Assembly (NCBI GenBank): GCA_963749915.1
Contig: CAVVOP010000005.1
Span: 288,001-352,000, forward strand
Reading direction: 5' to 3'
DNA: 64,000 bases
Source: an uncultured cyanobacterium
GTDB taxonomy: Bacteria > Cyanobacteriota > Cyanobacteriia > Cyanobacteriales > Cyanobacteriaceae
In this document: one piece after another, positions 1 through 20,035 of the stretch
Layout: each line of letters starts with the position of its first letter
Position numbering within the stretch: position 1 is the stretch's first letter
The notes under the pieces: generated by a model
The model's input: the letters and a program-made list of their open reading frames with translations, nothing else
What the model was told of the DNA's origin: nothing
Databases searched by the model: none
Position numbers and translations under genes: made by a program

Positions 1-192
1 GTTCAGGTCAAGGATTTTTCGGCACTTACCCTCAAAGGAGTGAAATTGAGAAACTACCGAAAAAATCAAAACCCCCAGCCAATCAACGATTCGTCGTTAC
101 TTGAGGCTACCTAAAACTGTAATAACAAGTTGTTGTTGATGTTACTGTTTCGGAAAGCTCAATGGTGAAGGTTAAAGTTGTATTTAGTCCTT

Positions 193-396
193 TTAAAGTA
201 AGCCAGTATTCGCTCCGGGGCGTCCAGTAACTAATTTGACTTTAACGATAGATCCACCCATTTTTTGGATTCTTTGTTGTTCTTTAAACCAGTTATCATA
301 AGGAACTAATTTGGTAAAATAGGTGTTTTGCAATTCTCTTTGAGTTCTAATTCTGCTTTGACTTGGTACACAAGCAGTTACTTGAAACATTCTCAT
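193..396 (-). CDS. apcC: Phycobilisome small core linker
   Basis: MRMFQVTACVPSQSRIRTQRELQNTYFTKLVPY; follows apcAB. Confidence 0.98.
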   Translation of the reverse strand: MRMFQVTACVPSQSRIRTQRELQNTYFTKLVPYDNWFKEQQRIQKMGGSIVKVKLVTGRPGANTGLL

Positions 397-533
397 GGGG
401 ATTAGTCTCCTTGATGATTAAATCTCTTTTTCAACTTTTTTCGGAAAATTAGTTTGTTTATATAAAAACAGTTAATTTTTAGTTCTAATTACTCAGATCT
501 AAATTTTAGTTTATGTAAAATTTTAATGATAAC

Positions 534-618
534 GGTTAGGAGTCAAGAGTCAATACTAAACCAATTAAGCCATCTTACAGTCCAATTAAACTAGCACTCA
601 CTCCGGACTTTCCTAACC
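534..618 (-). promoter_or_regulatory. Long stem-loop in the apcB-apcC spacer
   Basis: GGTTAGGA/TCCTAACC outer stem plus inner paired segments. Confidence 0.6.
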
Positions 619-666
619 TTTGCTTAGGTTTTTTAAAAGCGTTAATTACTGAATACCAGTAATCAA

Positions 667-1152
667 TTAGCTTAAACCAGAGCTAATGTAATCGAAGTAA
701 ACACCCATTTCTTTTCCAGCATCAGCACCCACTAAACTAGCAGTAACTTCCTTCATTGCTTGGATTGCCTGAATGGTAGAGCTTATAGGTACACCTAAAG
801 AGTTGTAGGTTTCTTTTAAACCGTTGAGTACACGCTCATCGAGAATAGAAGCATCACCAGCTAACATAGCATAGGTAGAATAGCGGAGATAGTAGTCTAA
901 GTCACGAATACAAGCGGCGTAACGACGAGTGGTGTACATATTACCACCGGGGCGAGTTACGTCAGAGTATAATAGGGATTTAGCCACAGCTTCTTTAACG
1001 ATGGTAGCAGCGTTGGCACTGATTACGCTAGCGGCACGAACACGGAGTTGTCCAGTTTGGAAGTAGCTTTTTAATTTACCTAAAGCGTTGGCGTCGAGGT
1101 ACTTACCTTGTACATCGGAGGAGTTGATTACAGCAGTAATTGCGTCTTGCAT
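667..1152 (-). CDS. apcB: Allophycocyanin beta subunit
   Basis: [10 protein letters not shown]...[16 protein letters not shown]. Confidence 0.99.
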
Positions 1153-1252
1153 TGTTGTTTTCCTTTCTTGTTAATTAACTTTTGCTTAGTATTTTGCAGG
1201 ACTAAAATTATTTAGCACGGATGATAGGGTTTAGGGATTATTAATCTAAAAC

Positions 1253-1738
1253 CTATTGCATTGCTCCGATAACATAATCGAAGTAGGCAGCCGCTTCACC
1301 AGCGTCATCAGAAGACATCATGCCAGTTGCAACTTCTTTCATTTCACGTACACTTTGAGATACCGCACCTACGTCAGTACCTAAAGATTTGTACATTTCC
1401 TTTACGCCGACTAAACCGATTTCCTCGATGGGAGTAACGTCACCAGCTACCACTCCATAAGTGATGAGACGTAGATAGTAGTCCATGTCACGTAAACAGG
1501 TAGCTGTCATTTCTTCGCCGTAAGAATTTCCACCGGGGGAAACAATATCAGGGCGTTTTTGGAATAAACGATCACCCGCTTCTTTAACGATACGCTCACG
1601 AGCACCACTCAAGGTTTCAGCGATGCGTAAACGAGCTTCACCGGAAGTAACGAATGCTTTGATTCTGTCTAACTCACCGGGGCTTAAATAACGTGCTTCT
1701 GCGTCAGCATTCACGATAGATTTCGTGACGATACTCAT
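1253..1738 (-). CDS. apcA: Allophycocyanin alpha subunit
   Basis: [27 protein letters not shown]. Confidence 0.99.
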
Positions 1739-2162
1739 TGATGGATTCCTCCAAACAAAATATTAAATAGTATTTATTAGTTAAACCAGAATATTAGTTA
1801 AACTGGTATTGAAATTTTGAGAATCCCTACCGATTGACTTGGTAGCTATTTCTCCTCAGTAAGTATAACCTGAGAGGGTTACAAATTCTGATTTATTTTT
1901 TGAAGATGTTTAATTTGTCTTCGCAAATCATTGTGCGGTATTAAGTCCACTTTTGCTTAATTTTCTTAATACTTTTTAACAATTGATTTTATCCATCGAC
2001 AAAAATAACACCTTTGCTTGCTTAGTAATTAGTCATTTTTTTTGGCTTTCACTTTCTAGCATCCACTCTAGATATTGACAGAGTTTCACTTTTCGCCGAG
2101 GATATTTATGGTTGCCGGTGTTGCGTTTCATTTTTCAACTAAACCTACATAGAAGTTTATAT

Positions 2163-3215
2163 ATGAATCTCGATGGACAATTATCCAGTTATGATTATTA
2201 TTTACCACCAGAGTTAATCGCTCAAAATCCCGCCACTCCAAGGGATAGCTCTCGTTTATTGGTTGTTAGGCCAGATGGGGAAGTTTATCATACAGTTTTT
2301 TCTAATTTACCTGATTTTTTGTTACCTGGAGATTTATTGGTTTTAAATGATACCCGTGTAATTCCTGCTCGGTTATATGGTAAAAAGTCAACGGGTGCGG
2401 CAGTTGAGGTGTTGTTAGTAGAGGAAACGGAACATAATTGTTGGTTGGCATTGGTAAAGCCGGGGAAACGTTTTTCTGTGGGCAGTGAAATTTTCTTCGG
2501 TGATTCCCCTTTCTTAAAAGCTACCGTTGTCGGTAAGGATGAGGCCACTGGAGGGCGCTTTTTACAGTTTCAGGTTAACGAGCCTCAATCTTTCTGGTCA
2601 ATATTAGAAGATATTGGCAATATCCCTTTTCCCCCTTATGTTAATGAGTCTCAGGCTCAACCTGAACAGTATCAGACTATTTACGCTGAAAAACAAGGGG
2701 CGATCGCCGCTCCTACGGCTGGATTACACTTTACTGAAAAATTATTGGCAAAATTAAAAGAAAGACAAGTTAATATCACAACGGTGACTCTCCATATAGG
2801 AATTGGTACTTTCCGACCAGTGGAAGCAGAGGATATTGTAACCCATGAAATGCACCAAGAATGGATAGAAATGAATAAAAATACCATTGATGCCATCAAA
2901 AAAACAAAACAACTGGGTAGAAAAGTCATCGCCGTGGGTACAACGGTAGTTAGAACTTTAGAAGGTGCGTATAAACATCAACAAAAATTAGCACCTTTTG
3001 CGGGAAAAACCGACTTATTTATTTATCCGAGCTATACTTTTCGGGTAATAGATGGTTTAATTACTAACTTTCATTTACCTAAATCTAGTTTATTAATGTT
3101 AGTAAGTGCCTTAATTGGTCGAGAAAGATTAATGAATATTTATCAAGAGGCCATTAGGGAAAAATATCGTTTTTATTCTTTTGGTGATGGGATGTTGGTT
3201 CTACCAAATAAGTAG
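2163..3215 (+). CDS. queA: SAM:tRNA ribosyltransferase-isomerase
   Basis: [31 protein letters not shown] 2163 preferred. Confidence 0.97.
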
Positions 3216-3454
3216 AATTAGAATAATAAATAAACAATGAAATCTAAAAAATATAATAGAAATACAATTCTTCTAAAGCCGTTCAAGAGTTGCGTTTACC
3301 AAACCCTTTATTCCCCGTTTTAACAAATCAAGAATTACTAGGGACTAGAGAATCGTGATCCCCCCCTATGATACAATTAATGGTTTAAGATCAATTCTCA
3401 GAAACAACGTGAAATAAATTAGGAAAATATTTTACATATACGGAGCATAATTTT

Positions 3455-4147
3455 ATGAAGAAAATAAATGCTATTATTATCAGTTTTGTCATTTTTTCCG
3501 TGCTACTGCTTAATCTTGTTGTTAATTCGGCTTCTGCTACGGGAGTATATGATTTGCCTGTGATTAACAGTGGGGAAGATGTTTGGATTCTGGATGCTCC
3601 TGGGGCTATTAGTAAGACCACAGAGGCTAAGTTAACCAGTGAATTGAGAGATTTAGCACAAAATACTGGTAATGAAACCCGTATAGTCGTTATCAACCGT
3701 CTTGATTATGGAGAAACTATTGATTCCCTGACTAATGAGCTTTTTTCTACATGGTATCCTACCCCAGAAGAACAAAATAATCAAACATTATTTGTTTTAG
3801 ACACTTTAACTAATCGTACTGCCCTTCGCACTGGGGAGGGAGTAACTCCTCTTTTAACTCCGAATATTCGCGATAGTGTTGTCAAGGAAACCGTAGTTGT
3901 TCCTCTTAAAAATTTACAATACAATCAGGCTTTGATTGATGCTAGCGATCGCATTGTGGCTGTTCTCTCAGGACAAGAAGATCCCGGTGCTCCCGAAATT
4001 AAGGAGTTAGCTATAGATGGAACTTTTGCCACCGCAGAAGAAACCGACGATCGTAGTGCCACTATTTGGATGATTGTCCTATTAGGATTAGCGACTTTAA
4101 TACCTATGATTACATATTTTTGGTATGTAGGCTTTCCGGGTAATTAG
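3455..4147 (+). CDS. psb32: TPM-domain PSII repair protein
   Basis: Signal peptide, ATGVYDLP, TPM fold, C-terminal TM helix. Confidence 0.88.
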   Translation: MKKINAIIISFVIFSVLLLNLVVNSASATGVYDLPVINSGEDVWILDAPGAISKTTEAKLTSELRDLAQNTGNETRIVVINRLDYGETIDSLTNELFSTWYPTPEEQNNQTLFVLDTLTNRTALRTGEGVTPLLTPNIRDSVVKETVVVPLKNLQYNQALIDASDRIVAVLSGQEDPGAPEIKELAIDGTFATAEETDDRSATIWMIVLLGLATLIPMITYFWYVGFPGN

Positions 4148-4220
4148 GGTAAAATAAAGATATGAAAGCATTGTATTTCATAACCGTCAATTTTAATATA
4201 AACAGGTAATAAGGAAAATT

Positions 4221-4475
4221 ATGCTCACAGACCCCGTTGTTATTAGATATTATCAAAAACTGACCGATGGAATGGTGGATTTATGGCATAGAGGTAGTCG
4301 CTATGAAGAATTGAGAATATATATGCAAGGATATCTAACTTGTCTCCGTCTCACCAACGTCATAGAAGGCTACCAAATCCATCGTTTAGAAGAAGAGGCT
4401 TTTCGTTTTCTCAGAGATCCTTCTAATTTTGAACTAGCCATGCCCCAAATGCAACCAGAACACGGTTACTATTAA
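4221..4475 (+). CDS. Conserved cyanobacterial small protein
   Basis: IRYYQKLTDGMVDLW...FLRDPSNF; AAGGAA RBS. Confidence 0.8.
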   Translation: MLTDPVVIRYYQKLTDGMVDLWHRGSRYEELRIYMQGYLTCLRLTNVIEGYQIHRLEEEAFRFLRDPSNFELAMPQMQPEHGYY

Positions 4476-4681
4476 ACATTAGGCATTCGCAATTATAGCA
4501 ATTAGCCATTAATTTATATATAAACTATCAACGTCCAACGTCTATCTAGTTGGACCAAATATTTGGGCGTTTATTTGTTGTCTGTTCTAAAAAATCCCGT
4601 AGACACTTTCTATTGGCAATAAGTCCCCATTCGCATTAATATAATCCCCTATTAATTAATATCACCCTCAATAGTAAGTTT

Positions 4682-4870
4682 ATGACCAATTCTACTCCTT
4701 CTGAATCCACTACTAACCCCACCGAACCTAGTGTCAAACCTCAAGACAGTTACGTTAAATTGGCAATGCGTAATATGGTGAAAAAAAAGGGTATATCTTT
4801 AAAGCACTTTTTCTTAACAACTTTTGCCTTATTAGGGTTTCTCGTGGGAATTTCTTATTTAACCAGATAA
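4682..4870 (+). CDS. DUF3285-like small membrane protein
   Basis: SYVKLAMRNMVKK...HFFLT plus TM helix. Confidence 0.8.
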   Translation: MTNSTPSESTTNPTEPSVKPQDSYVKLAMRNMVKKKGISLKHFFLTTFALLGFLVGISYLTR

Positions 4871-4990
4871 AAAAGTTAAAAATTAACAATTAATAGTGAA
4901 TATAGCAATCAGGAATCATTCGTGAGAATCAAATAATTGTTTTAAAAGGATTCAGAATCCAGAATCCAGTATTCAGTTATTGGATTATTG

Positions 4991-5497
4991 TCAATTGTTG
5001 TTATAACTCCAACGCAATAAAGTAACGCCCAAGCCGTATTTTAAAACCTCCAAAACCCAATAAGCTTCGTGCCATGAAATCATCGCCGATGGCATTGTTG
5101 TGACCGTGTTAAACTGATTTAAACATAAACCCCATGCACTTAAATGGGGAATAAATAGATAAGTGTAAGCCACAGCTATTAGGAATAGTAAAGTAGAAAA
5201 GGCGACAAATAAGGACTGTTTTTTACGAGAAAAATTATGGTTAAAAGAGAATACAAATGCACAAGTTAAAACTAGAGAAGCACAAATCAACTCAATGCGA
5301 TTAAACACCCCAAAAATTAAAAATCCGGCACTGGCAAAACTACCCTCAGTCATCATGCCGCTAACAGAAAGGGCAGGAATTAAAACGAAATCTAGCAGCA
5401 AGCTGCCACTAAGCCAAAATCCTAATGCAAATAAAATAATAGCAGACCAATTTATTTCTTTATGTTCTTTATGATTTGAGTGAGAAATAGCATTCAT
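4991..5497 (-). CDS. DUF4149-like membrane protein
   Basis: Four hydrophobic helices, FNRIELIC. Confidence 0.75.
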   Translation of the reverse strand: MNAISHSNHKEHKEINWSAIILFALGFWLSGSLLLDFVLIPALSVSGMMTEGSFASAGFLIFGVFNRIELICASLVLTCAFVFSFNHNFSRKKQSLFVAFSTLLFLIAVAYTYLFIPHLSAWGLCLNQFNTVTTMPSAMISWHEAYWVLEVLKYGLGVTLLRWSYNNN

Positions 5498-5651
5498 AAT
5501 AATAGTACCTTTTAATATCTCTACTATTTAGAATAACGCACTATTTCATCTTTTTCTATTAAGTATTTTTAAGGTTTTTTATGAAGTTTAATTAAGTTTA
5601 ATTAATGATTAAACTTAAGGATATATACTTATAAAGTATATAAAAAACGGA

Positions 5652-5711
5652 TCTTCTGCTTTGAGTATGATAATTTGTTAGCTAAAAAAGGTTTTAGTTA
5701 TTAGTTATTAG
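5652..5711 (+). repeat. 60-bp dispersed repeat, copy 1
   Basis: Nearly identical to 42101-42160. Confidence 0.85.
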
Positions 5712-5756
5712 CTGTTTTTAAAAATAGCTAAAAAATCCCTAGCCTAACACCCAACC

Positions 5757-6096
5757 CAATACTGCGAGGGATTTGAATAATTATCTGTTGTGACAAGGAC
5801 AGGGAAGAGGGGGAAGCTTTCGGGTGTAGGTTTTTAATATTTGGGCGAAGGTGAGACTTGGAAGAGGGGGAAGATGGGGAAGATTCCTCAAGGAAAAATG
5901 GTCTTTTCACTCCCTTGTCCACTTTCCTTCCTTGTCCTCCTTGTCTCTCCCTCACCAGAACTTATTGTAAAAAACCTACCCTTGTCAGGGGGGAAGAGGG
6001 GGGGAGAAAAATGCCAAAACCAACGGTGCTTCCCACACTCCCAACACTCCCCACTTCTCATTTGATCAAGTTTTTCAGCTCAACCGAGTGGTATTG
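5757..6096. mobile_element. MITE with CAATAC...GTATTG ends and 10-bp target duplication
   Basis: Left end CAATACTGCGAGGG also at 40360; flanks ACACCCAACC/ACACCTAACC. Confidence 0.8.
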
Positions 6097-6145
6097 ACAC
6101 CTAACCCCTAGCGCCTTTAATGAAGTATTTATGTACTGGTTTTAA

Positions 6146-6262
6146 TTATTCCAGGCCGATTTCGCTACTGCGTTTATATTGACGATAGGCGGCAAAAAAT
6201 AAACCGATGAGGGTGACAGGAATTAACCCTAAAACAATACCGAGTAACAAAGGTTCAATCAT
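6146..6262 (-). CDS. petG: Cytochrome b6f subunit V
   Basis: Hand translation [38 protein letters not shown]; not in ORF track. Confidence 0.97.
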
Positions 6263-6449
6263 TAATATTCTCCAGTGTTTAAATTTATTAATTTATCCTA
6301 AAATTTTCCACTTTCCATGCTATCAAAAAAGGTCGAGGGAATCAACAATGAACAGTAAACAATTTTCACCTAAATGAATACTCTTATCGTCTGTATTCTA
6401 ATTTCTAGACTAAAATAAGAGGAAGTTTAGTTTAATAGGTAAGTGGTTT

Positions 6450-6776
6450 ATGACGGATTCAGAAAATTTGTTACAGAAAGCGTTTTATTTAGGTGTCGGC
6501 ATTGCTAGTTATGCAGTGGAAAAAGCCAATGATAAATTTCAGGAATTAAAACAACAAGCTGGAAAAATTGTCCTGACCCCTGATTTTCCTCAACAATTGC
6601 AAAAAATCGCGGATGATATGGTGAATAAGGGAAAAATGAGTGCCGAAGAAGCCCGTCACTTTGTTGATGAAATATTAAAACAGTCACAAACTCAGAGGGT
6701 AGGAAATGACGATCCTAATGCACCACACGAACCGCGTACCATTGAAATAGTAACTGATGATGAGAACGAACAATGA
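6450..6776 (+). CDS. Phasin-like protein
   Basis: LLQKAFYLGVGIAS, DDMVNKGKMSAEEARHFVDE. Confidence 0.75.
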   Translation: MTDSENLLQKAFYLGVGIASYAVEKANDKFQELKQQAGKIVLTPDFPQQLQKIADDMVNKGKMSAEEARHFVDEILKQSQTQRVGNDDPNAPHEPRTIEIVTDDENEQ

Positions 6777-6861
6777 AAAATAGATAATTATAATTAATTA
6801 TACGAGCTAAGGATGAATAATTGAGTTACATTAGAGTCGAGATCTTTTTTATTCTTTGGGA

Positions 6862-7314
6862 ATGATGGATAATTGGGAAAATAATTTGATTAACTGGTTA
6901 GATACTACTCAAAAAGAATTGGAGTCATTTTATACACAAATGAACCAACATTGGCAGAAAAACACTGAGGAATGGCAAAACATATTTAATCAGTTAACAG
7001 AGGAAGTTGAGGACACGCTGACAACAGAATTAAATGAGTTTCTGACAGAGGTCGATGGTTTTGTCATAGAAGTGGCAAAATTGTTCCTTGATGAGGACTA
7101 TCTTAATGATGTTGATGATTACAATTATTTTACTGATGAAGACGAGTTTTATTCATGGTTACAAGACACAAAAACCGGGCCTAACCCAGAAATAAATCCC
7201 GCTTGTCTGGGTTGTAGTAACTATCATGGTCAGACTTATAATGGTAACTTACTTGTCTGTGGTATGCACCCCTATGGTTGGGATGGTGAGACCTGCCCCG
7301 ATTGGCAGGAATAA
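6862..7314 (+). CDS. Acidic helical protein with C-terminal Cys/His motif
   Basis: CLGCSNYHG...VCGMHPYGW...CPDW. Confidence 0.8.
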   Translation: MMDNWENNLINWLDTTQKELESFYTQMNQHWQKNTEEWQNIFNQLTEEVEDTLTTELNEFLTEVDGFVIEVAKLFLDEDYLNDVDDYNYFTDEDEFYSWLQDTKTGPNPEINPACLGCSNYHGQTYNGNLLVCGMHPYGWDGETCPDWQE

Positions 7315-7422
7315 AAGACAGGGGACGACGAGACAGGAGGTTTGAGAAGGAGGTGGGCAAATAAACCCCTACATAAAACTGACTTTTCGGTGATAACAAT
7401 CTGCCGAATGGCTGAAATTTAT

Positions 7423-8601
7423 TTATAAATCAAGGGAATTTTCGATGGCAGATACTAAAACATCCGTCAAAATTTTAATGCGATAACGACAGGCTTGGGT
7501 TTCCATTGAGGCAAATGTGCCGTTTTCCCAATATTTGTTACTACCTGCACCACCGCCGCAAATACCGAAATAACTACAGTTATTTGCACATAATTCTACC
7601 CCTTTATTAATATCATTATAAATAGCCTTAAATTTGTCAGTTTTACAAATAGATTCAAGAGTATTTGTTAATACATTACCAAAAATAAAATCACCATATT
7701 TTTCAGTTTTTATGGATAATAACTCTGGATCAAAAGTAGAAAAATTCCCCTGATAATCATAGTTAACAATGACAAAAGGCTTATTCATATCAGTATTGGT
7801 TAATCTCTTTCCGCTATAAATTAAGCTAATTAAAATCTCAAATTCTCTGATAACAAAAGGTAATTTACTTTCGGTTACTAACTGCCAAAAACGCTCAATA
7901 AATTTACGATATTTATGCTCTATTTTTTTCCCATTTAAAGAGGTTAATTCATTAACTCCCTCCGTTTCTTCCATATTAAAAGCTATGTCATAAATCTCAT
8001 TTTCTGCAAAAAAATTAAACATTTCATCGGCATAATTTAAGGATTCTTCAGTAATAACAGAAATGGTGTTATAGGGGATACTATTTTTTTGTAAATAGCG
8101 GATTCCGCCCATGGTTAAATCGTGAGAATTTCCACCTTTACGGTTTTTTCGGTGGGCATCATGTAAAAAGGCAGGTCCATCAATACTTACGCCGACATGA
8201 ACGGGATATTCTTGCCAAAGATCGCACCATCCTTGATTAATTAATGTACCGTTAGTTTGATAGGAATGATAAAAATAAAAGTCAGTTTTATTATATTTTT
8301 CGTTAGCTTCATTTATGAGTTGAAAGGCAGATTTATAAAAGGAAATTGGCATGGTTAATGGTTCGCCTGCGTGCCAACAAACACTAAAATCACTTTGAAA
8401 AAAAGGACTGGTAAAAATACTTTTGAAAATGGGATCTATTAAGTCCAAAGATAGTTTATTTTGTAGGTGTCGATCTGGTAAATAACAATAATCACAATTT
8501 AAGTTACAAAAAGAATTAGGCTGAATAATAACTAAAGAAATTGGTCCAAATTTAGAGGTATCTTTTAATATTTCTGATTTTTGATTTTCTGCCATCGCCA
8601 T
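7423..8601 (-). CDS. grrM: GrrM/OscB-family cyclophane-forming radical SAM/SPASM maturase
   Basis: QPNSFCNLNCDYCY, WHAGEP, SPASM CANNCSYFGICGGG...C; next to Gly-rich precursors. Confidence 0.92.
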   Translation of the reverse strand: MAMAENQKSEILKDTSKFGPISLVIIQPNSFCNLNCDYCYLPDRHLQNKLSLDLIDPIFKSIFTSPFFQSDFSVCWHAGEPLTMPISFYKSAFQLINEANEKYNKTDFYFYHSYQTNGTLINQGWCDLWQEYPVHVGVSIDGPAFLHDAHRKNRKGGNSHDLTMGGIRYLQKNSIPYNTISVITEESLNYADEMFNFFAENEIYDIAFNMEETEGVNELTSLNGKKIEHKYRKFIERFWQLVTESKLPFVIREFEILISLIYSGKRLTNTDMNKPFVIVNYDYQGNFSTFDPELLSIKTEKYGDFIFGNVLTNTLESICKTDKFKAIYNDINKGVELCANNCSYFGICGGGAGSNKYWENGTFASMETQACRYRIKILTDVLVSAIENSLDL

Positions 8602-8689
8602 TTTTTTAGTAATAAGTAATGAGTATTCCGCCCCCAAGTTTGGGAGAATTAAAATAAGATAAAAGTCCCCAGAATTGGCGATTTAGGGG

Positions 8690-9055
8690 CTAATAGCGAC
8701 GATTTAAGAAGCCTCCACCACCGTCTCCCCAGCCACGATTGTTAAGGAAACCACCACCACCACGATTGTTCAGGAAACCACCACCACCACGATTTCGCCA
8801 GCCTCCACCACCATTAATAAAGCCCCCTACTAATATTTCATTTTCGAGTAAATTTTTTAAATTTGATTCTTCAGGTAAGTCTTTTTCTCTAGCTTTAAGG
8901 GCTTCAGATATGCGACTTAAACGAGTTTCTATATTTTCAGAAATGTCAGCAGAATTGCTGATATTATTAGCATTAATAGCAAGGGTTTTAGGAGCGATCG
9001 CAAGACTTGATAAAGTCATGAAAAAGCCCAACCATGTTAAATTTGTTATTTTCAT
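8690..9055 (-). CDS. grrA: GrrA/OscA1-family RiPP precursor (copy 2)
   Basis: Signal peptide, IETRLSRI leader, repeated F-x-N/W-x-N/W-x-D core. Confidence 0.9.
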   Translation of the reverse strand: MKITNLTWLGFFMTLSSLAIAPKTLAINANNISNSADISENIETRLSRISEALKAREKDLPEESNLKNLLENEILVGGFINGGGGWRNRGGGGFLNNRGGGGFLNNRGWGDGGGGFLNRRY

Positions 9056-9127
9056 AAATTTGTTGATAGTAAAGAAAACAGTTAATTATTAATTGCTAAT
9101 TTTTGATTGCTGATGATTAATTATCAA

Positions 9128-9535
9128 TTACCAACGACGATTTAAGAAACCACCACCATCTCTCCAACCTCGATTGAGGAAGCCACCACCGCCTCGATTA
9201 TTTAAAAAACCTCCGGGACCTCCTCTACGGTTAAGAAAACTTCCCCGGCCAAGGTCTCCCCAACCACCACGACGAAAGTTTACCCAACCACCGCCACCAT
9301 TGAGAAATCTACCTAACAAGATTTGATTATCAGGATAGTTTTGACCATTCTCAGATAAGTCTTTTTCTCTGGCTTTGAGTGCTTGGGAAATACGGCTTAA
9401 ACGAGTTTCTATATTTTCGGAAATGTCAGCGGAATTGATGATATTATTAGCATTAATAGCAAGGGTTTTAGGAGCGATCGCAAGACTTGATAAAGTCATG
9501 AAAAAGCCTAACCATGTCAAATTCGATATTTTCAT
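9128..9535 (-). CDS. grrA: GrrA/OscA1-family RiPP precursor (copy 1)
   Basis: Near-identical leader to copy 2; longer Gly/Arg core. Confidence 0.9.
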   Translation of the reverse strand: MKISNLTWLGFFMTLSSLAIAPKTLAINANNIINSADISENIETRLSRISQALKAREKDLSENGQNYPDNQILLGRFLNGGGGWVNFRRGGWGDLGRGSFLNRRGGPGGFLNNRGGGGFLNRGWRDGGGFLNRRW

Positions 9536-9574
9536 AGGATGTAAATAAATAATTGATCAAGGAAAATGATGGTT

Positions 9575-10510
9575 TTATTTTTTGGGGAAGGGAATTTGTT
9601 CGTGATTGATGATCGTAGTTTTAAAGAACTCCTCGATCGCCTCATCACTAACCACATCAACTACACCATTTGGACCTATCCATTTATTGAGTAATTGACT
9701 CATTTGAGGATCTTTGTTTAAATAACCTTCCATCATTTTAGCAATACTATAGTTAGCAATATTCAAGAAAGTAGAGTTATTTTGCGGGACAATACAACCT
9801 ACTCCATATCGTGCTAAAGGGGGTTCACTAAAGGGCGGAAACTGCTCAAATCCATCTCTATCAACCTGTTGACGTAAACCATCTAAGAGAATACTATCTC
9901 CAGCTAAAGCGTCTATTTTGCCGTCTTTTAACACTGTCACCCCTTCTTCCAAACTAGGCACTTCTACTAATACCGCATTAGGATAGGCTAACTTAATGGC
10001 GTCTCTGACAAAAGTTTGAGGAGGAATCCCCATTTTTTTGTTGGCGAAAGAAGTATCACTGGGAATTTTGCCTTTGGGAAGTAAGACCCGAATGCCTGAA
10101 ATTGTGTATCTTAGGGTAAAGTCAACATACTTATCTCTTTCCCATGTGAAAACTACGTTACAAGCGATGTCAATTTCTCCAGATATCATTTTAGAGATAG
10201 TGTCTTGAGGGGAATTAAGTTCCACAAAATTTAGTTCAATCTTACGCCCTAATTCCTGTTCTAATTGTTGATGAATTAATTTAACTATATCGATGGAAAA
10301 ACCATTCAACTCATTTTCAGGATTATAGTAAGCATAAGGGACAATATTAAAAGGAGTTCCCACAGTGAAAACACCTGATTGAGCGACATTTTCCACTACC
10401 GTACCAGCCATAGTGGGTTTTACCCCCATTGAGAATAACAATCCCATTAAAGAACTAAGAAAAATTTTCTTCCACATGATTTTACCAAAACGCTTTTGCC
10501 ACATTATCAC
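9575..10510 (-). CDS. grrP: Orphan extracellular substrate-binding protein GrrP
   Basis: SBP family-3 features, signal peptide, no permease/ATPase nearby, grr context. Confidence 0.85.
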   Translation of the reverse strand: MIMWQKRFGKIMWKKIFLSSLMGLLFSMGVKPTMAGTVVENVAQSGVFTVGTPFNIVPYAYYNPENELNGFSIDIVKLIHQQLEQELGRKIELNFVELNSPQDTISKMISGEIDIACNVVFTWERDKYVDFTLRYTISGIRVLLPKGKIPSDTSFANKKMGIPPQTFVRDAIKLAYPNAVLVEVPSLEEGVTVLKDGKIDALAGDSILLDGLRQQVDRDGFEQFPPFSEPPLARYGVGCIVPQNNSTFLNIANYSIAKMMEGYLNKDPQMSQLLNKWIGPNGVVDVVSDEAIEEFFKTTIINHEQIPFPKK

Positions 10511-10586
10511 ATAAATGATGGAGATAAAATGTAAATAAATTTTAAAACAAACAACATAAACTTAATTCATCAATAGAATATAGATC

Positions 10587-11240
10587 ATGGATAAAAAAAA
10601 AGCCATTGTTTTATTCTCAGGAGGTTTAGATTCTGCTACCAGTGCGGCCATCGCCATTCAAGCAGGATACGATACCATCGCTTTATCATTTCGCTATGGA
10701 CAAAAACACGCCAAAGAATTGGAAGCCGCTCAAAAATTAGCTCCAAAATTAGGCATAAAAGAGCACTATATTATCGATGTTAATCTCTCATTATGGGGGG
10801 GATCATCCTTAACGGATCAAAATCTGAACATCCCCGAAGATGGTGTTAAACCTGATCAAATTCCCTCTACTTATGTCCCCGGTAGAAATACAGTTTTTAT
10901 TGCCATCGCCCTTTCTTTGGCGGAAGCCAAGGAAGCCGAGGCTATTTATTTAGGCATCAATGCGGTGGATTATTCCGGCTATCCTGATTGTAGACCCGAA
11001 TATTTAAAAACCTTTCAAGAATTAGCTAATCTATCATCAAAAGTCGGTATTGAAGGAAAACCCCCTCAATTAATCGCCCCTTTAATCGAATTATCTAAAG
11101 AAGACATCGTTAGAAAAGCTATTAGTTTAAATGTACCCATAGAAGAAACATGGTCATGTTATCGGGGAGGAGAAAAACCCTGCGGAGTTTGTGATTCCTG
11201 CCGTATCCGTAACGAGGCGTTAATAAAAACCGGTTATTGA
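10587..11240 (+). CDS. queC: 7-cyano-7-deazaguanine synthase
   Basis: [26 protein letters not shown]. Confidence 0.97.
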
Positions 11241-11326
11241 TTATTTTCTGAATAAAATTCAATGTGGAATTAGAATCGATCGAGTCCATAGGTAAAAATA
11301 AGAATTATAATTTATTTAAGTAGTTT

Positions 11327-12592
11327 TTATACTGAAACTCTGATAATATTCGTTACGATTTCGCCTATTTTGATACTGGCACCAGATAAGCCTCTTACTT
11401 GACTCAAATTCTTTTTTATTTGCTCTAATTTGTCTCGATTTCGTAATAATTCTAAGGTGAAATTACCTACGTCTTCTACTGTTAAATAACCGATTAATTC
11501 GGGTACTATTTCCTGTTTTCCCCAAATATTAGGCCAGGCATATAATTTCTTATTTTTAACGGAGTACTGCACCACTATCCAATTAATTAATTTAGCGAAA
11601 CCATCTCCTATTATGGGTAAATTAGCCAGTACTCCGAGTAAGCCATCCCATGACTTCATCGCCTCTAATTGATAGATAGGAAGTAAAACAATCATCGGTA
11701 TTGCTAACGCACCTAATTGAGCAGTATTTGCTCCTACAGTTGTCAAACAAAGATCACATTTTATTAATTCTTCATAACAAGGAAATTCGGTGATTAATTT
11801 AATGTTTGTTCCTCCTGATGTCTCTAAATAAAATTGATTTTTTTTGGTGATTAATTCTCCTGTGACTCCCCCTAAATCGCTAATTAAAGGGTTATTTTTT
11901 TTATTACCATAACTGGCTAAATTTTCAGGAGAGATTGTAGGGGCAACAGGTATAATAAATTCTATATTAGGCTGTTTTTGAACAATATATTCTGCGATCG
12001 CCATCAAAAAAGGGACACCTTGAGTTAATTTACTTTCTTTTGATCCAGGTAATAATCCAACGTTTAAAGTAGTTTTATTATCGCTATTCTGTGCTTGATT
12101 TAAGACATTTATGTCTGCCATTAAATCTCCAACAACAGTACATTTGTTTTGAAATTTAGTAGGTATTTTATCAATAGCAGATTGAGTCATAACGACAAAA
12201 TAATCAATATATCGATACCAACGAGCTTCCCATTCTGCATAAATTAAACTCTGATAACCTAATCTTTTCGCAATCACCAAAGTAAAAAATTGATCACCAC
12301 CTAAAAATATTACTAACCCTTGAGAATACCAATTCCAATTATCTTTTGTTTTACCTGATAATAAAAAAGCTGAAAAATCTTCCGCCGATTGAATACGATT
12401 AATTTCCTGCCATTGACTAGCAATTTTAACTTCATTGCCTGTAGCGTGAGGACAAGGGGATAAAATCAATGAAATACGAACTTTATCTTGAGGGATGGTT
12501 AAATTTGCTCGAATTTGTTTAACAACAGGTAAAACCCATGTGGTAATTTCTCCTGGCCCATTAGATAATATTACGATGTCAAAATTGTTCAT
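11327..12592 (-). CDS. LpxB-like glycosyltransferase
   Basis: SNGPGE, GLLPGSK, TTVGANTAQL. Confidence 0.75.
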   Translation of the reverse strand: MNNFDIVILSNGPGEITTWVLPVVKQIRANLTIPQDKVRISLILSPCPHATGNEVKIASQWQEINRIQSAEDFSAFLLSGKTKDNWNWYSQGLVIFLGGDQFFTLVIAKRLGYQSLIYAEWEARWYRYIDYFVVMTQSAIDKIPTKFQNKCTVVGDLMADINVLNQAQNSDNKTTLNVGLLPGSKESKLTQGVPFLMAIAEYIVQKQPNIEFIIPVAPTISPENLASYGNKKNNPLISDLGGVTGELITKKNQFYLETSGGTNIKLITEFPCYEELIKCDLCLTTVGANTAQLGALAIPMIVLLPIYQLEAMKSWDGLLGVLANLPIIGDGFAKLINWIVVQYSVKNKKLYAWPNIWGKQEIVPELIGYLTVEDVGNFTLELLRNRDKLEQIKKNLSQVRGLSGASIKIGEIVTNIIRVSV

Positions 12593-12770
12593 TGTTTTTC
12601 AAATGGAAATAATGGGAATATTTCAACTCAGGCGATCGCAATGTTAACTTAGATTAAACAAAAAAACAAAGTAATGAGGGATAGCAGGATTCTCCCAAAT
12701 CCAAAATTATCCTCACAACTCCCTCAGAACTATCTTGACAGACCACTACTTTCCCCTCTTGTATTGCCTG

Positions 12771-14927
12771 CTAAATTTGGGATTCTTGACGGGCGATTTC
12801 TGCTTGTTCAGGATGGATGCCTAAACGGGTCAAATTTAAACGTCCTTTTTGGTCAAAGCCACGAATTTTTACCACAATTTCATCACCGATGGTAACTTCA
12901 TCTTCTACTTTACCGACACGGTGTTCAGCTAATTGAGAAATGTGAATCATGCCTTCTTTTCCTGGTAACACCTCCACAAATGCTCCAATATCGATGATAC
13001 GGGTAACACGACCTAAATATACATCCCCCTCGTTAAGTTTACGAGTCATGGTTTGAATAATGCGTTTAGCCTCTTGTGCCCGTTCTGCCTGTACTGCACA
13101 AATAGTTACAGTGCCATCATCGCTAATATCGATTTTTGAGCCTGTTTGTTCGGTGATACCTTTGATGGTTTTACCTCCGGGTCCGATGACTAAACCAATC
13201 ATATCAGGATCAATTTTCATGGTCATCAAACGAGGTGCATAGGGTGATAATTCTTTACGAGGGGCGTTGATAGTTTTCATCATTTCCCCTAAGATATATA
13301 GACGGGCTTCTCTGGCTTGTTTTACCGCATCAGCGATGGTTCCCATTTTTAAACCTGTAATTTTCATATCCATTTGTAAAGCCGTAATACCGTTGTCAGT
13401 ACCAGCTACCTTGAAATCCATATCCCCTAAGAAGTCTTCAATGCCCTGAATATCCGTTAAGATACGCACCTCCTCTCCTTCTTTAATTAAACCCATAGCC
13501 GCACCACTCACAGGCTTGGTAATGGGTACTCCTGCATCCATTAAGGCCAAGGTTGAACCACAGACCGAACCCATAGAGGTTGAACCGTTGGAAGATAGTA
13601 CTTCAGAAACAACTCTAATTACATAAGGAAAATCTTCTTGAGGAGGTAAGACAGGGGTAATAGCCCTTTCTGCCAAAGCCCCATGACCGATTTCCCGTCT
13701 TCCAGGGGGGCGTAGAGGTTTGGTTTCACCTACAGAATAAGGGGGGAAATTATAGTGGTGTAGATAACGTTTTTCAAAGTCAGGGTGTAAATCGTCTGCT
13801 AAATCTTGGGCATCTCCCGATGTGCCCAAAGTCGCGATGGAAAGTACTTGAGTTAAACCCCGTTGGAATAAACCGCTACCGTGTACCCTCGCAGGTAATA
13901 AACCCACACGGGATTGAATAGGGCGCACTTGATCTAATTTGCGTCCATCTACTCGCACACCATCTTCTATAATTTGACGACGCATGAGTTTTTTGGTCAA
14001 CTGTTTAAATAAATTAGGGACAAGTTTGACATTTTCGGCAACGGCGATTTTAATTTCATCCTCATCGGGTAAAGCGTTAATAGCTTCTAGCACAAAAGTA
14101 GCTTGAATATTATCTAACGCCTCATCTCTGGCACTTTTATCAAAATCAAACTGAGAAAGAACTTTTTTAATTTCCTCTGTGGCTTTTTCGCCAATAAAAT
14201 TAACCACCGCGGGATTATCTTCCTCTTTATTTTCGACTTTGATTTCAATACCCAATTCTTGGATAAGATCTTTTTGAGCTTGGATTAACTCTAATATGGC
14301 CTCATAACCAAATTCGATCGCCTCAATAATATCTTGTTCTGGTAACTGATTCGCCCCAGCTTCTACCATGACAATGCCATCAGGAGTACCCGCTACCACT
14401 AAATCAAGATCGCCGTTTTCGATTTCTCGGAAAGTAGGGTTAATTATAAACTCGTCATTAACTAATCCAACCCTTACCGCCGCCATGGGGCCACAAAAAG
14501 GGATTTGAGCCACTAAAGTAGCGATGGATGCACCGGTAACTGCTAACACGTCAGGGGGTACTTCTTCATCCATCGATAAAGTAGTAGCCACAACCTGTAA
14601 ATCATCTCTTAACCATGAGGGAAAAAGAGGACGTAAAGGACGATCGATCAAACGACTGGTAAGAGTCGCCCTTTCCGGAGGTCTCCCTTCTCGGCGTAAA
14701 AATCCCCCCGGAATACGTCCTGCGGCATACAATCTTTCTTCATAATCAACAGTTAGAGGTAAAAAATCGATCCCTTCTCTGCCTTTTGTGCGGGTTGCAG
14801 TTACGAAAACTGCGGTTTCACCTGCTTGAATTAACACCGATCCTCCGGCTTGAGGTGCTAATAATCCCACTTTAATTTTTATATCTCTTCCTTCAAAAAA
14901 AGAAATTGACTTATTATATTCTTCCAT
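12771..14927 (-). CDS. pnp: Polyribonucleotide nucleotidyltransferase
   Basis: Two RNase PH domains, RREIGHG, KH, S1. Confidence 0.99.
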
Positions 14928-15039
14928 TCAACTTTTTTCCTTATTCTTCGCTTTTCTCTATGCACTCTGTAATCGTAACATTTTTCAGTAATTAGCAATT
15001 AGCAATTGATCATGAAAAAAGGGAATAGGGAATATTTTA

Positions 15040-15321
15040 TTAAGCATCAGAAAGTAGTTTTTGACAAATATCTTTAACTCTTATCCTTTCAATATAAGGC
15101 CAGCCGCCTACTTCCTCTATGTGTTTTAATAACAAATAAAGTCGGTGACGAGTATCGGGTAAATTCGGTTCAAACATTTCTTGTCGGATATTCCGGTGAA
15201 GCAATTCTAATTCCCTGAGAATCAAAAGCACATCGAAAATATTATCTTGGGATTTTTCTGCTAGATTCCCAATTTCATTGACTAACTTTTTGAGTTCACT
15301 TTCAATGGCACTGCTATTCAT
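15040..15321 (-). CDS. Conserved hypothetical protein
   Basis: GGWPYIERIR; clean ORF. Confidence 0.75.
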   Translation of the reverse strand: MNSSAIESELKKLVNEIGNLAEKSQDNIFDVLLILRELELLHRNIRQEMFEPNLPDTRHRLYLLLKHIEEVGGWPYIERIRVKDICQKLLSDA

Positions 15322-15413
15322 GAATCTTAAAATTACCTATCCAGAAATTAATGATAGTTGATTATTATTATTTTTGCTACAACCACCAAGTTATTTATTA
15401 TTAGTGAAATATA

Positions 15414-16259
15414 TTAAATAAACTCTTGTAAGCCTAAAAATAAACAAGTCAATAATAAAACTCCCAAACCAGCAATACTACCCAAAGGCTGATCTTTTTT
15501 CCCGATCAACCAACCTTTTCCAGCGGGATTATAGCTATAGATGTTGAATGTATCGACACAAGCCAAAACAAACACCCAACCACCATGTAATCCGATGGCT
15601 AATCCTAAACTACCATTATCCATGATACGGGCGTAAAAAAGAACTATGCCCATGAAAAATAATCCGGGTAACTGAGGGAATGTGTTTTTTTGTTCCCAAA
15701 TTAAATGTAATAAAGCAAAAATGAAACTCGAAATAATCGCTGTCAGCCAAATATTAAAATCTTCTTGTAAAAAGTTAACGAATATGCCTCGAAAAATTAA
15801 CTCCTCAATGGAAGCAACAAAAAAACTTACCCATAGGAGTAAAGGTAAATTAGGCCAGATATTCGGGGTAGAGTCATCTTGATTATTTAACTCTAACCAA
15901 CCCATCACCAATTCTAGAGCATCAATGAGAAAGGTGCTTATAATGCCCAAACCATAGCCAAATAGGATAGACTTAAAAAGACTAGCTTGAAAAATCAATC
16001 CTATTTTTTCTAATGAGGTTTGCCCTACTGTTATCATCGCCCAAGTTAAAACAGGGGCTAAGGAATAGAGGGAAATAATAAAAGTTAGTTTTTGAGTGTT
16101 GGAAATTGGTGCGGCTATTTGCCATTTAACTAACCTTGCGAGGGGAATTGCCATGGGAACCCAGATAACCGCCCATATTATCAAAAATAAAATAATTTTT
16201 ATAATTGAATTAAATTGATTAAATAGGATAATTACCGAGTCACCTTCGAAATTTAGCAT
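15414..16259 (-). CDS. CPBP intramembrane metalloprotease
   Basis: EELIFRG, FALLH, AIGLHGGW. Confidence 0.9.
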   Translation of the reverse strand: MLNFEGDSVIILFNQFNSIIKIILFLIIWAVIWVPMAIPLARLVKWQIAAPISNTQKLTFIISLYSLAPVLTWAMITVGQTSLEKIGLIFQASLFKSILFGYGLGIISTFLIDALELVMGWLELNNQDDSTPNIWPNLPLLLWVSFFVASIEELIFRGIFVNFLQEDFNIWLTAIISSFIFALLHLIWEQKNTFPQLPGLFFMGIVLFYARIMDNGSLGLAIGLHGGWVFVLACVDTFNIYSYNPAGKGWLIGKKDQPLGSIAGLGVLLLTCLFLGLQEFI

Positions 16260-16363
16260 TTTTATCTACAAGGTTAATTATTTTGAGAAACAGTCGTTTT
16301 CTGAAATAGTTGTACAGAATAAAGTTTTTGATTCTCCATATTGATCAATCTCAATATTAATAA

Positions 16364-16756
16364 TTAATCTTCATCAAATTCAATGCCATCTGCGTCAACT
16401 TGTTTTAGATGAATATGTTTATAGCCTAATTTAATTTCAAATTCGTCACCGGGTTGTAATCCCATTTTTTGAGTATAACTAGAACCAATGACAATTTGAC
16501 CATTTTTGTGAACACTAACTCGGAAAGTTGCTTCTCGACCACGGCCATCTTTTGCTCTTTCAGGATCAAGAGGAACACCTTTTGCCGCCAAGACTGCATC
16601 ATAAAAAGCTGTCAAATTTACTCGCTCTTTATCGTTTTTTCCTAAAGTATAATAACCACAGGCTTTAGCTCGTTGACGACGAGGAATGTCCGACAACTCT
16701 TTAACTTTTTGTAATAAGGCTTTTCCGGATAAAGGAGTAGGTACTGATTCATTCAT
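16364..16756 (-). CDS. Cyanobacterial AbrB-like regulator
   Basis: AKACGYY, RVSVHKNGQIVIG, PGDEFEIKLGYKHIHL. Confidence 0.93.
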   Translation of the reverse strand: MNESVPTPLSGKALLQKVKELSDIPRRQRAKACGYYTLGKNDKERVNLTAFYDAVLAAKGVPLDPERAKDGRGREATFRVSVHKNGQIVIGSSYTQKMGLQPGDEFEIKLGYKHIHLKQVDADGIEFDED

Positions 16757-17078
16757 ATCAATTTGTTTCCCGTTTCGTACTTTATTTCTTACAATAATTT
16801 ATGATAACAAAAAATGATCATTAAATCATCATTTAAAAACTTTTTTTTTGAAAATTATTATTAATTTACTCCCCCAAGAGAGGGGTTTTATCTACATAGC
16901 TCAGAAAAAAAATAGTTGAGCATTATTATTTTTAAGCTCTGATAGTTAAGTAATGGTATAAATATAAAATAAGTAAGTAATTTAGCCAATTTTACAAAAC
17001 TTAAGGAAAACGCCCTTGTCAGTTATAAATTAACACAAGACAATAGAAATAACTTGATAAATAATTTACAGAATTGAG

Positions 17079-18059
17079 ATGAAAGTTACTTTTAAAATTC
17101 TCCGTCAAAAGCCGAATTTTACTCCAAAATTCCAAAACTACACTTTAGATGTTAGTTCCACTAATACTATTTTAGAATGTTTAAATCAGATAAAATGGGA
17201 GTTGGACGGAAGTTTAACCTTCCGTAAAAATTGCCGCAATACCATCTGTGGAAGTTGTGCCATGAGAATTAATGGTCGTTCGGCTTTAGCTTGTAAAGAA
17301 AATATTGCTGGAGAATTGAAAAATATTGATCCCTCCCTAGAGGAAGATAGTCCGGAAATTATTATTTCTCCTCTTCGTAATTTGCCTGTTATTAAAGATT
17401 TAGTAGTAGATATGACTAATTTTTGGCAAGATTTAGAAACTATTGAACCCTATATCAGTACTAGCAGTAGAAATATCCCCGAAAAAGAGTTTTTACAAAC
17501 CCCTGAACAACGGAAATTATTGGAACAAACTGGCAATTGCATCATGTGTGGTGCTTGTTATTCTGAATGTAACGCTAAGGAGGTAAATTCCGATTTTGTA
17601 GGACCTCATGCTTTAGCAAAAAGTTATCGTTTGCTGACAGATTCCCGTGATAGTGACGCCGAAAATCGACTAGAAAAATATGACAATCAAAATAGCGGTG
17701 TTTGGGGTTGTACTCGTTGTTATTTATGCAATGAAGTTTGTCCCATGGACGTTGCACCACTAGATCAAATTAGTAAAATTAAAGGGGAAATTTTAGCTAA
17801 AAAAGATCTCAATTCTAGTCGCCCAATTCGTCATCGGAAAGTCTTGATTGATTTAGTTAAAAATGAAGGGTGGATTGATGAGCGTAAATTTGGGGTGATG
17901 GTGGTGGGTAATTATTTTCGGGATGTGCAAGGTTTATTAAGTATTGCACCTTTGGGATTCCGTTTGTTATGTTCTGGTAAATTCCCTTTTAATTTTGAGC
18001 CCTCGGAGGGAGTAAAGGAAGTGCGATCGCTAATTTCTGCGGTGCAAAACAATCATTAG
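17079..18059 (+). CDS. sdhB: Succinate dehydrogenase/fumarate reductase Fe-S subunit
   Basis: CRNTICGSC, CIMCGACYSEC, CTRCYLCNEVCP. Confidence 0.95.
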   Translation: MKVTFKILRQKPNFTPKFQNYTLDVSSTNTILECLNQIKWELDGSLTFRKNCRNTICGSCAMRINGRSALACKENIAGELKNIDPSLEEDSPEIIISPLRNLPVIKDLVVDMTNFWQDLETIEPYISTSSRNIPEKEFLQTPEQRKLLEQTGNCIMCGACYSECNAKEVNSDFVGPHALAKSYRLLTDSRDSDAENRLEKYDNQNSGVWGCTRCYLCNEVCPMDVAPLDQISKIKGEILAKKDLNSSRPIRHRKVLIDLVKNEGWIDERKFGVMVVGNYFRDVQGLLSIAPLGFRLLCSGKFPFNFEPSEGVKEVRSLISAVQNNH

Positions 18060-18446
18060 TTAATGATTAATTTCTAATTGAAATAGATTTTCTATTTTTT
18101 GTAAATAAGGATCTCCCGCTAGATAACCAATACCACGATGGAGATGTAACCGGAATTGATTATTTAAAGTTTCAGGATCGGTACCAAATCCGTCTTGATG
18201 ACATCTATATTTTAATGCTAAGAGCAAAATATCACCCATGTCACCGCCGAAAACTTGCCAAGTCATTTCCACATTACTATCCGCCGGAATAGGATATGGT
18301 GCAGGGGGATTCTTTTCCGCTAGGGAACGACAAAATGCCCAACGACATAAAACATTCCAGTGTTCTATTTTTGTAATTCTTTTTAGTTTTATGAGTTGAT
18401 CTTTGGCTTTTTTGGAAAGTTTAATTCTTTCTATGGGCGATCGCAT
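18060..18446 (-). CDS. dndE: DNA sulfur modification protein DndE
   Basis: WNVLCRWAFCRSLAE, EMTWQVFGG, FRLHLHRGIGYL. Confidence 0.9.
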   Translation of the reverse strand: MRSPIERIKLSKKAKDQLIKLKRITKIEHWNVLCRWAFCRSLAEKNPPAPYPIPADSNVEMTWQVFGGDMGDILLLALKYRCHQDGFGTDPETLNNQFRLHLHRGIGYLAGDPYLQKIENLFQLEINH

Positions 18447-18450
18447 ATTA

Positions 18451-18915
18451 TTACTCATTACTAATTGAGAATTGTCGTAAAGATTCAAATAAAACTACCG
18501 AGACACTCACGGATAAATTTAAACTGCGTACATGGGGACTAACCATCTTAATAAAACAAGTTAAATCGCACTGTTGCAAAACTTCCAGAGGCAAACCATC
18601 AGTTTCACTACCAAATAAAAGCCAGTCATCAGGTTTGAATTCACATTGGAGATAATTTTTCGCCCCCCTGACACTCAGGCCAATTAATCTTCCACCTTTT
18701 TCTCTGGCGGACTTAATAAAATCTTCTGGACATTGATGATAGGTTAATTGAACATGAGGCCAATAGTCTAAACCAGCCCTTTTTAAATAACGATCACTAA
18801 TTTCAAACCCCAAAGGGGCAACTAAATGTAATTCTGTTTCCGTCGCGGCACAAGTTCTAGCAATATTGCCAGTATTGGGAGGAATTTGAGGATGAACTAA
18901 TACAATTTTTGGCAT
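18451..18915 (-). CDS. trmL: tRNA (cytidine(34)-2'-O)-methyltransferase
   Basis: PQIPPNTGNIARTC, RAGLDYW, RSLNLS. Confidence 0.95.
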   Translation of the reverse strand: MPKIVLVHPQIPPNTGNIARTCAATETELHLVAPLGFEISDRYLKRAGLDYWPHVQLTYHQCPEDFIKSAREKGGRLIGLSVRGAKNYLQCEFKPDDWLLFGSETDGLPLEVLQQCDLTCFIKMVSPHVRSLNLSVSVSVVLFESLRQFSISNE

Positions 18916-18953
18916 GGTTAATAATTAACAATAATTTTCTCACCACCTGATTT

Positions 18954-19964: not shown

Positions 19965-20035
19965 GGATTTTCCCTCAATCAAGTTTTTTTGATCCCTAGA
20001 GTTTCTTTATTTTGAAAAGTAAAATTAAGTCAACC

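Follow-up and report, generated by a model that had tools for sequence, protein, structure and literature searches.

The closest described relative of the gene cassette reported here is OscA/OscB of Oscillatoriales cyanobacterium CG2_30_40_61 (OIP69445.1-OIP69447.1; locus L044 in our set). There, two tandem precursors with a signal-like N-terminus, a leader helix and a Gly-rich core of W/F-x-N/D motifs lie adjacent to a GrrP-type substrate-binding protein, and no dedicated protease or exporter is recognised next to them. A review names OIP69445.1 as OscB; according to it, the enzyme connects an aromatic residue with the beta-carbon of the residue at position +2, bonding C7 of Trp to Asn or Asp and C4 of Phe to Asn (PMC11002830). 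Here, we analysed a cassette of this kind in a stretch of 64,000 nucleotides from an uncultured cyanobacterium (GenBank assembly GCA_963749915.1, contig CAVVOP010000005.1, positions 288,001 to 352,000), hereafter called the window. Every sequence feature examined places it in the GRRM/OscAB family, as an ordinary intact copy of the catalogued GrrP-GrrA-GrrA-GrrM triceptide cassette. Its cyclophane chemistry is well supported and export of the product by the general secretory (Sec) pathway is likely, while binding of the product by GrrP is speculative.

The cassette differs from OscA/OscB in that grrP is co-oriented with the other genes and not divergent, and in its Phe-richer cores (F-L-N repeats) with 8 and 6 motifs as opposed to 5 and 7; the published chemistry is that of OscB. 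A second comparison is offered by the bufferins, which likewise have a large precursor of a ribosomally synthesised, post-translationally modified peptide (RiPP) with a Sec signal and no dedicated exporter or protease. Sec exports them and signal peptidase cleaves them, but they are made by an MNIO enzyme and carry Cys-derived thiooxazoles that bind copper, and their macrocycle likely forms after export, whereas the cyclophanes of the window peptides would form before it (doi 10.1101/2024.03.18.585515). The window cassette resembles bufferins in the likely export route only. Xye triceptides (xenorceptides) also contain three-residue cyclophanes made by a radical S-adenosylmethionine (SAM) enzyme, but a protease, HlyD and a protease-transporter are encoded in their clusters, they have a Gly-Gly leader and their products are short BamA inhibitors (doi 10.1101/2024.12.16.628070). 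With the XyeB profile, the window GrrM reaches a score of 69, where the cut-off is 450. For GrrP, the best profile and fold match is GltI, the glutamate/aspartate-binding protein (DEBP; PDB 2VHA, 2IA4), with which it shares a Cys pair, an Arg and an Asp; it differs from DEBP in being only ~20% identical, in an altered pocket loop, in a conserved C-terminal E-Q-I-P tail and in having no transporter genes.

Cassette and probable cyclophane chemistry

Four intact, co-oriented minus-strand genes lie within positions 7423-10510 of the window. Families were assigned with NCBIfam profiles and their curated cut-offs, and all four gene products score above these. This bears out the sequence-only reading, which had described a co-oriented substrate-binding protein, two precursors and a radical SAM/SPASM enzyme:

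9575-10480, minus strand: grrP, 301 amino acids (aa), alternative starts at 10504 and 10510; TIGR04262, 259 bits (cut-off 190)
9128-9535, minus strand: grrA1 precursor, 135 aa; TIGR04260, 47 bits (cut-off 31)
8690-9055, minus strand: grrA2 precursor, 121 aa; TIGR04260, 68 bits (cut-off 31)
7423-8601, minus strand: grrM (GrrM/OscB), radical SAM/SPASM enzyme, 392 aa; TIGR04261, 595 bits (cut-off 310)

GrrM contains a CxxxCxxC motif at residues 32-39 and further Cys residues at 319, 338, 342, 348 and 371, a pattern common to OscB. It is 63% identical to OIP69445.1 over 379 aa without gaps, and locus L044 encodes exactly this protein. With the cut-offs passed and this identity, the assignment to the GrrM/OscB-type family with cyclophane chemistry is supported. 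By analogy with OscB, the same chemistry, with −2 Da per motif, very probably holds for the window precursors, for which up to −16 and −12 Da would be expected from their 8 and 6 motifs. Literature searches returned no paper on a GrrM/GrrA natural product or its function among the matches listed.

The precursors can be divided as follows:

9458-9535, minus strand: grrA1 residues 1-26, signal-like (sequence pattern)
9356-9412, minus strand: grrA1 residues 42-60, conserved, likely leader helix (alignment)
9131-9307, minus strand: grrA1 residues 77-135, Gly/Arg core with 8 F/W-x-N/D motifs
8978-9055, minus strand: grrA2 residues 1-26, signal-like (sequence pattern)
8876-8932, minus strand: grrA2 residues 42-60, likely leader helix (alignment)
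8693-8821, minus strand: grrA2 residues 79-121, core with 6 F/W-x-N/D motifs

The core motifs start at F77, W84, W92, F100, F110, F119, W124 and F130 in grrA1 and at F79, W86, F94, F103, W109 and F116 in grrA2; a ninth match in grrA1, Y67-P-D, sits in the linker outside the core. The two genes are a tandem duplication, and their leader DNA is 91% identical over 186 nucleotides. The sequence-only reading had called the peptides cationic. This applies to the cores, which have a net charge of +8 and +5 (135-aa and 121-aa precursor, respectively), but less so to the peptides left after removal of the signal peptide alone (+7 and +1).

An alignment of 57 precursors shows four parts, namely a signal-like N-terminus, a conserved I-E-x-R-L-x-R-I segment with an invariant Arg45, a variable linker that closes with (I/L)-A-x-G, and the Gly/Arg core. 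In a set of 85 distinct candidate precursors, chosen for at least two motifs and including one false positive (L072:9818-10399, dropped), N or D occupies position +2 of 626 of the 795 core aromatics, and F/W-x-N ends the core within five residues of the C-terminus in 81 of 82 cores. Counts of cassette arrangements are slightly low because the regular expression missed the precursors of L032, L035 and L074. By inspection, the precursors next to five of five divergent GrrM genes, all without an adjacent GrrP, also contain a segment similar to I-E-x-R-L-x-R-I; these precursors have a signal-like start in four cases and none in one. We read the segment as a helix and, since it is kept in divergent cassettes without GrrP, as quite likely the recognition site of the enzyme.

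Probable export without a dedicated protease or exporter

In both window precursors, a Lys at position 2 is followed by a hydrophobic stretch free of charges and by an ...APKTLA sequence closing at residue 26; the Sec-like signal peptides (...KTLA) that had been noted earlier stand on these features. Signal peptides were scored with a hand-made rule, not with SignalP, and the rule was adjusted once the precursors had been seen. With any early start allowed, the two window precursors and all 82 relatives pass the rule; at the first start codon, 69 of the 82 relatives do. Among other proteins, the rule accepts 58 of 61 GrrP, none of the 85 GrrM-like proteins and, as a background, 12% of the open reading frames (ORFs) of the genome (375 of 3096). 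Downstream of the hydrophobic stretch, 84 of the 85 candidate precursors have a small-x-Ala site.

It had also been pointed out that no protease or exporter adjoins the cassette. This is true at the locus but nothing special, as it is typical of the family. The best 80 of 98 GrrM loci were fetched and, together with a second cassette of the source genome, gave 81 loci with 809 clustered ORFs. Beyond GrrM, GrrP and GrrA, no family occurs in more than 12 loci; the most frequent others are CNNM and MltA, which mostly reflect Microcystis synteny, and no recurrent peptidase or exporter is found among the 809 ORFs. Similarly, no peptidase recurs across genera among the 100 nearest flanking genes (100-900 aa). 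Seven of these have peptidase or hydrolase matches of five kinds (PmbA/TldD, PrsW twice in one genus, C15, rhomboid, and alpha/beta hydrolases twice) and one has an ABC-2 membrane domain, with no C39, HlyD or ATP-binding cassette (ABC) ATPase among the 100. GG, GA or GS precedes the core in only 21 of the 85 rows, among all of which a few have a mis-set core start; the precursors therefore do not have the standard double-glycine leader, and a strict leader of this type was rejected.

We consider it likely from these sequence features that Sec and signal peptidase stand in for a dedicated exporter and protease. Cytoplasmic GrrM would grip each precursor by the conserved helix and, within each motif, likely link Trp or Phe with the beta-carbon of the +2 residue (Asn or Asp), giving up to 8 and 6 rings. 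The stapled peptides would then probably leave by the general Sec pathway, with signal peptidase cutting after Ala26 and possibly a second cut before the core, and would arrive in the periplasm or the thylakoid lumen. There, outside the cytoplasm, a co-exported GrrP would meet them.

Linkage of grrP to grrA and the binding pocket of GrrP

The distribution of the three families was determined in 301 genomes from across the phylum, including the source genome. GrrM was found in 30, GrrA in 24 and GrrP above its cut-off in 38 of them, and all 24 GrrA genomes encode GrrM. Within the cassette, grrP is linked to grrA rather than to grrM: it adjoins a grrA in 23 of the 24 GrrA genomes, with the remaining one not decided, while grrM lies within 5 kb of grrA in 17. 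In all seven GrrA genomes where grrM is not within 5 kb, grrP stays with grrA. These comprise two separations on the same replicon, one genome with 14.8 kb of contig free of grrM, three same-genus cases on different contigs and one contig edge. In two complete Microcystis chromosomes grrP and grrA are together and grrM is at least 0.66 Mb away, and the same separation is seen in a Geminocystis draft. Moreover, grrP lies upstream in 38 loci, divergent in 14 and downstream convergent in 3, and its linkage to grrA has therefore survived rearrangement. The Microcystis grrM lies directly downstream of the lytic transglycosylase gene mltA, far from grrP-grrA; mltA-grrM loci are L045, L049, L051, L054-L058, L060, L061 and L091.

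GrrP belongs to substrate-binding protein family 3, has a GltI/DEBP-like fold and carries a signal peptide. Its AlphaFold model has a pLDDT of 93, and the top Foldseek matches are DEBP and sensor derivatives of it (TM ~0.7). Residues C107, C229, F111, R115 and D195 are invariant in 120 homologues, and the two cysteines are consistent with a disulfide outside the cytoplasm. At two positions where DEBP has aligned threonines, GrrP mostly has non-polar residues. Phe111 and Trp113 are conserved aromatics added in comparison to DEBP, and 46 of 56 proteins have a pocket loop shortened by one residue. When GrrP (26-301) was co-folded with the signal-less form of the 121-aa precursor, the score was 0.02 against a mark of 0.32; this was not used as evidence. 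Since the GrrP tree has a long-branch outgroup and an uncertain root, we claim no order of events from it.

No ABC permease or ATPase is located beside GrrP in the window and none is recurrent in the 81 loci. A polar amino acid ABC importer operon was rejected on these grounds, with partners in trans being possible. An NtcA-type box (GTA-N8-TAC) is absent upstream of the window grrP and occurs in 4 of 60 upstream regions of GrrP clusters compared to 20 of 524 other genes, which is no enrichment. The gene sll1762 of Synechocystis PCC 6803 may be its grrP; a homologue search from a related GrrP gave no Synechocystis name among the 120 rows listed. In the literature, sll1762 is described as an NtcA target that is 2.5-fold up without nitrogen and accumulates under salt.

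Weighing of GrrP function and export route

Taken together, we lean towards a reading in which the cyclophane chemistry and Sec export both hold and GrrP has some functional tie to the product. A narrower proposal, that GrrP is of the glutamate/aspartate-binding type with a remodelled pocket and binds the conserved C-terminal ring unit as a carrier or chaperone, is tentative, and we hold it to be possible rather than probable. Several observations weigh against these readings. The detached cases are not independent, as they come from few related lineages, several from single genera and several with contig breaks. Three loci have grrP adjoining grrM and not grrA, and one grrA stands alone (L098). 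No GrrA match was found in 14 of the 38 genomes with above-cut-off GrrP, two such loci that were examined have no precursor-like neighbour, and the GrrP of these two loci falls among cassette-linked GrrP in the tree, whose root is uncertain. Conversely, some GrrM cassettes with signal-bearing Trp-rich precursors are without GrrP. Within the pocket, Arg115 and Asp195 align with an Arg and an Asp of DEBP which we take to be its amino-acid-binding residues. On the export side, a strict A-x-A is present in just 50 of the 85 candidate precursors, and the main doubt is that macrocyclic peptides, according to the paper on bufferins, would be poor Sec substrates (doi 10.1101/2024.03.18.585515). Sec export as claimed by the sequence-only reading gains indirect support from the signal-like N-terminus seen across the family and from the bufferin precedent. 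Its other claim, that the binding protein handles the peptides, gains from grrP keeping with grrA when grrM moves and loses from the GrrP genomes without GrrA.

The same pattern could arise if chemistry and Sec export hold but GrrP binds a small amino-acid-like ligand, is merely co-regulated with grrA and never touches the peptide. Every listed fold match of GrrP is a binding protein for small solutes, mostly amino acids, or a sensor derived from such a protein, which together with the invariant R115 and D195, the GrrA-less GrrP genomes and a stand-alone paralogue in the source genome that has a GltI-like CGSTT motif (L014, see below) speaks for this explanation. Against it stand the lack of an ABC permease or ATPase with GrrP in the loci examined, the non-polar residues at the threonine positions, the new aromatics and the shortened loop, and the way grrP tracks grrA through rearrangements; on balance we regard it as unlikely, though not by a wide measure. 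It is less probable still that the hydrophobic N-terminus stays uncleaved, as a membrane anchor or part of the leader, and that an unlinked C39 transporter, TldDE or CAAX protease cuts the core free at the Gly that precedes the first aromatic. The genome does encode one C39-peptidase protein, and the nearest peptidase-family gene within positions 1-20000 of the window is an Rce1-like CAAX protease (15414-16259), 4.9 kb from the cassette, with queC, an lpxB-like gene and pnp in between. Right before the core, Gly-Gly is found in one window precursor and Gly or Ala in most relatives; the reported difficulty of macrocycles with Sec would also fit. However, the other window precursor has Gly-Arg at this position, a GG, GA or GS pair is confined to the minority of rows given above, the small-x-Ala site is nearly universal, and the flanks hold neither C39 nor HlyD, unlike Xye triceptide clusters. 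That GrrM might instead be an anaerobic sulfatase-maturing enzyme, with the small genes as bystanders, has next to no probability: a weak TIGR03942 match (141 bits) and a sulfatase gene near the cassette in 3 of 80 loci point that way, but the match is far under the cut-off of 349, while GrrM reaches 595 bits with TIGR04261, is 63% identical to OscB and is encoded in every GrrA genome. This identity was rejected.

The locus itself is ordinary, with catalogued families, published chemistry and a maturase that about one in ten of the sampled genomes encodes. Even so, the family poses questions that are cheap to test, namely whether peptides with 6-8 rings pass Sec and what GrrP binds, and the linkage of grrP to grrA, together with GrrP in genomes without a precursor match, sharpens the question of its ligand. 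Any family member would serve such tests, and the window copy has no special advantage. At the bold end, and quite improbable as a whole, multi-macrocycle GrrA peptides would pass Sec after stapling, and GrrP would be an amino-acid-binding protein turned into their receptor, gripping the conserved C-terminal W/F-x-D/N-GGG-F-x-N-R unit. On this view, neighbouring cells would be the targets of the cationic peptides, and GrrP would protect the producer. If true, this receptor reading would make the stand-alone GrrP of non-producing cyanobacteria orphan immunity or eavesdropping genes.

Second cassette, paralogues and variant loci

Above-cut-off GrrP is encoded at L104:6700-7692 and L105:6619-7581 in genomes without a GrrA or GrrM match, mostly of one family; both are candidate orphan receptor or immunity genes. 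A stand-alone GrrP-like paralogue of the source genome (L014:7090-7989, contig C19) scores 180 bits, just below the cut-off, and keeps the CGSTT motif. No transporter partner was recognised beside it, and paralogues with similar scores are found in many relatives.

The source genome has a second full grrP-grrA-grrM cassette on another contig, C8 (L013:7418-10054). The GC content of the block around it is higher than that of the window (0.40-0.48 compared to ~0.35). This block also encodes an Asp-Ala exchanger-type transporter, a pyridoxal phosphate decarboxylase, a class II glutamine amidotransferase and an enzyme of aminotransferase fold, and transposase-like ORFs come after these. The precursor is Arg-rich and similar to the precursors at loci of Xenococcaceae and Spirulina, and a length of ~11.9 kb is 99% identical to L088. 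The C8 cassette was likely acquired horizontally.

Loci L107-L111 and L074 hold divergent GrrM cassettes without an adjacent GrrP, whose precursors are missed by TIGR04260. The precursor at L110:6788-7111 is a (W-E-N)n repeat with ~12 motifs, the one at L111:6982-7188 has no signal peptide, and L074:5461-5973 is a 170-aa ORF with 19 motifs. A protein of 380-450 aa with no Pfam match lies beside or near the cassette in seven loci of several genera (L027:5001-6365, L028, L073, L078, L080, L082 and L090), often with a DUF1400 hydrolase or a sulfatase. In the Planktothrix cassette at L059:5021-7168, grrM is split into two ORFs, grrP is split and the precursor is truncated, which represents decay or an assembly error.

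Intergenic repeats and neighbouring genes

The cassette is flanked by queC (divergent) and by two proteins without a family above cut-off. As queC and the other flanking genes are located elsewhere in same-genus genomes, the cassette comprises just the four genes, and the neighbours were rejected as parts of the system. Between positions 7200 and 10700, scans found 7 promoters compared to 12.9 in shuffled sequences and 1 terminator compared to 2.8, so neither exceeds the shuffles. One further feature lies between the genes:

8628-8695, no strand assigned: dispersed intergenic repeat of ~60 bp between grrA2 and grrM

This repeat has many short matches elsewhere in the genome of the window (G000) and in G284, G307 and G309 and is not specific to the cassette; a longer TTG start at 8637 falls within it. 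A second short dispersed intergenic repeat at 9081-9130 brackets grrA2 together with the first, and both have copies elsewhere in the source or related genomes. Further away, a DndE-family gene (DNA phosphorothioation) is located at 18060-18488 on the minus strand, with no other dnd gene recognised beside it in positions 1-20000. The gene at 6856-7314 on the plus strand encodes an acidic 152-aa protein with a Cys-rich C-x2-C ... C-x2-H ... C end, which has no family above cut-off and is conserved in relatives, where it is unlinked to the cassette.

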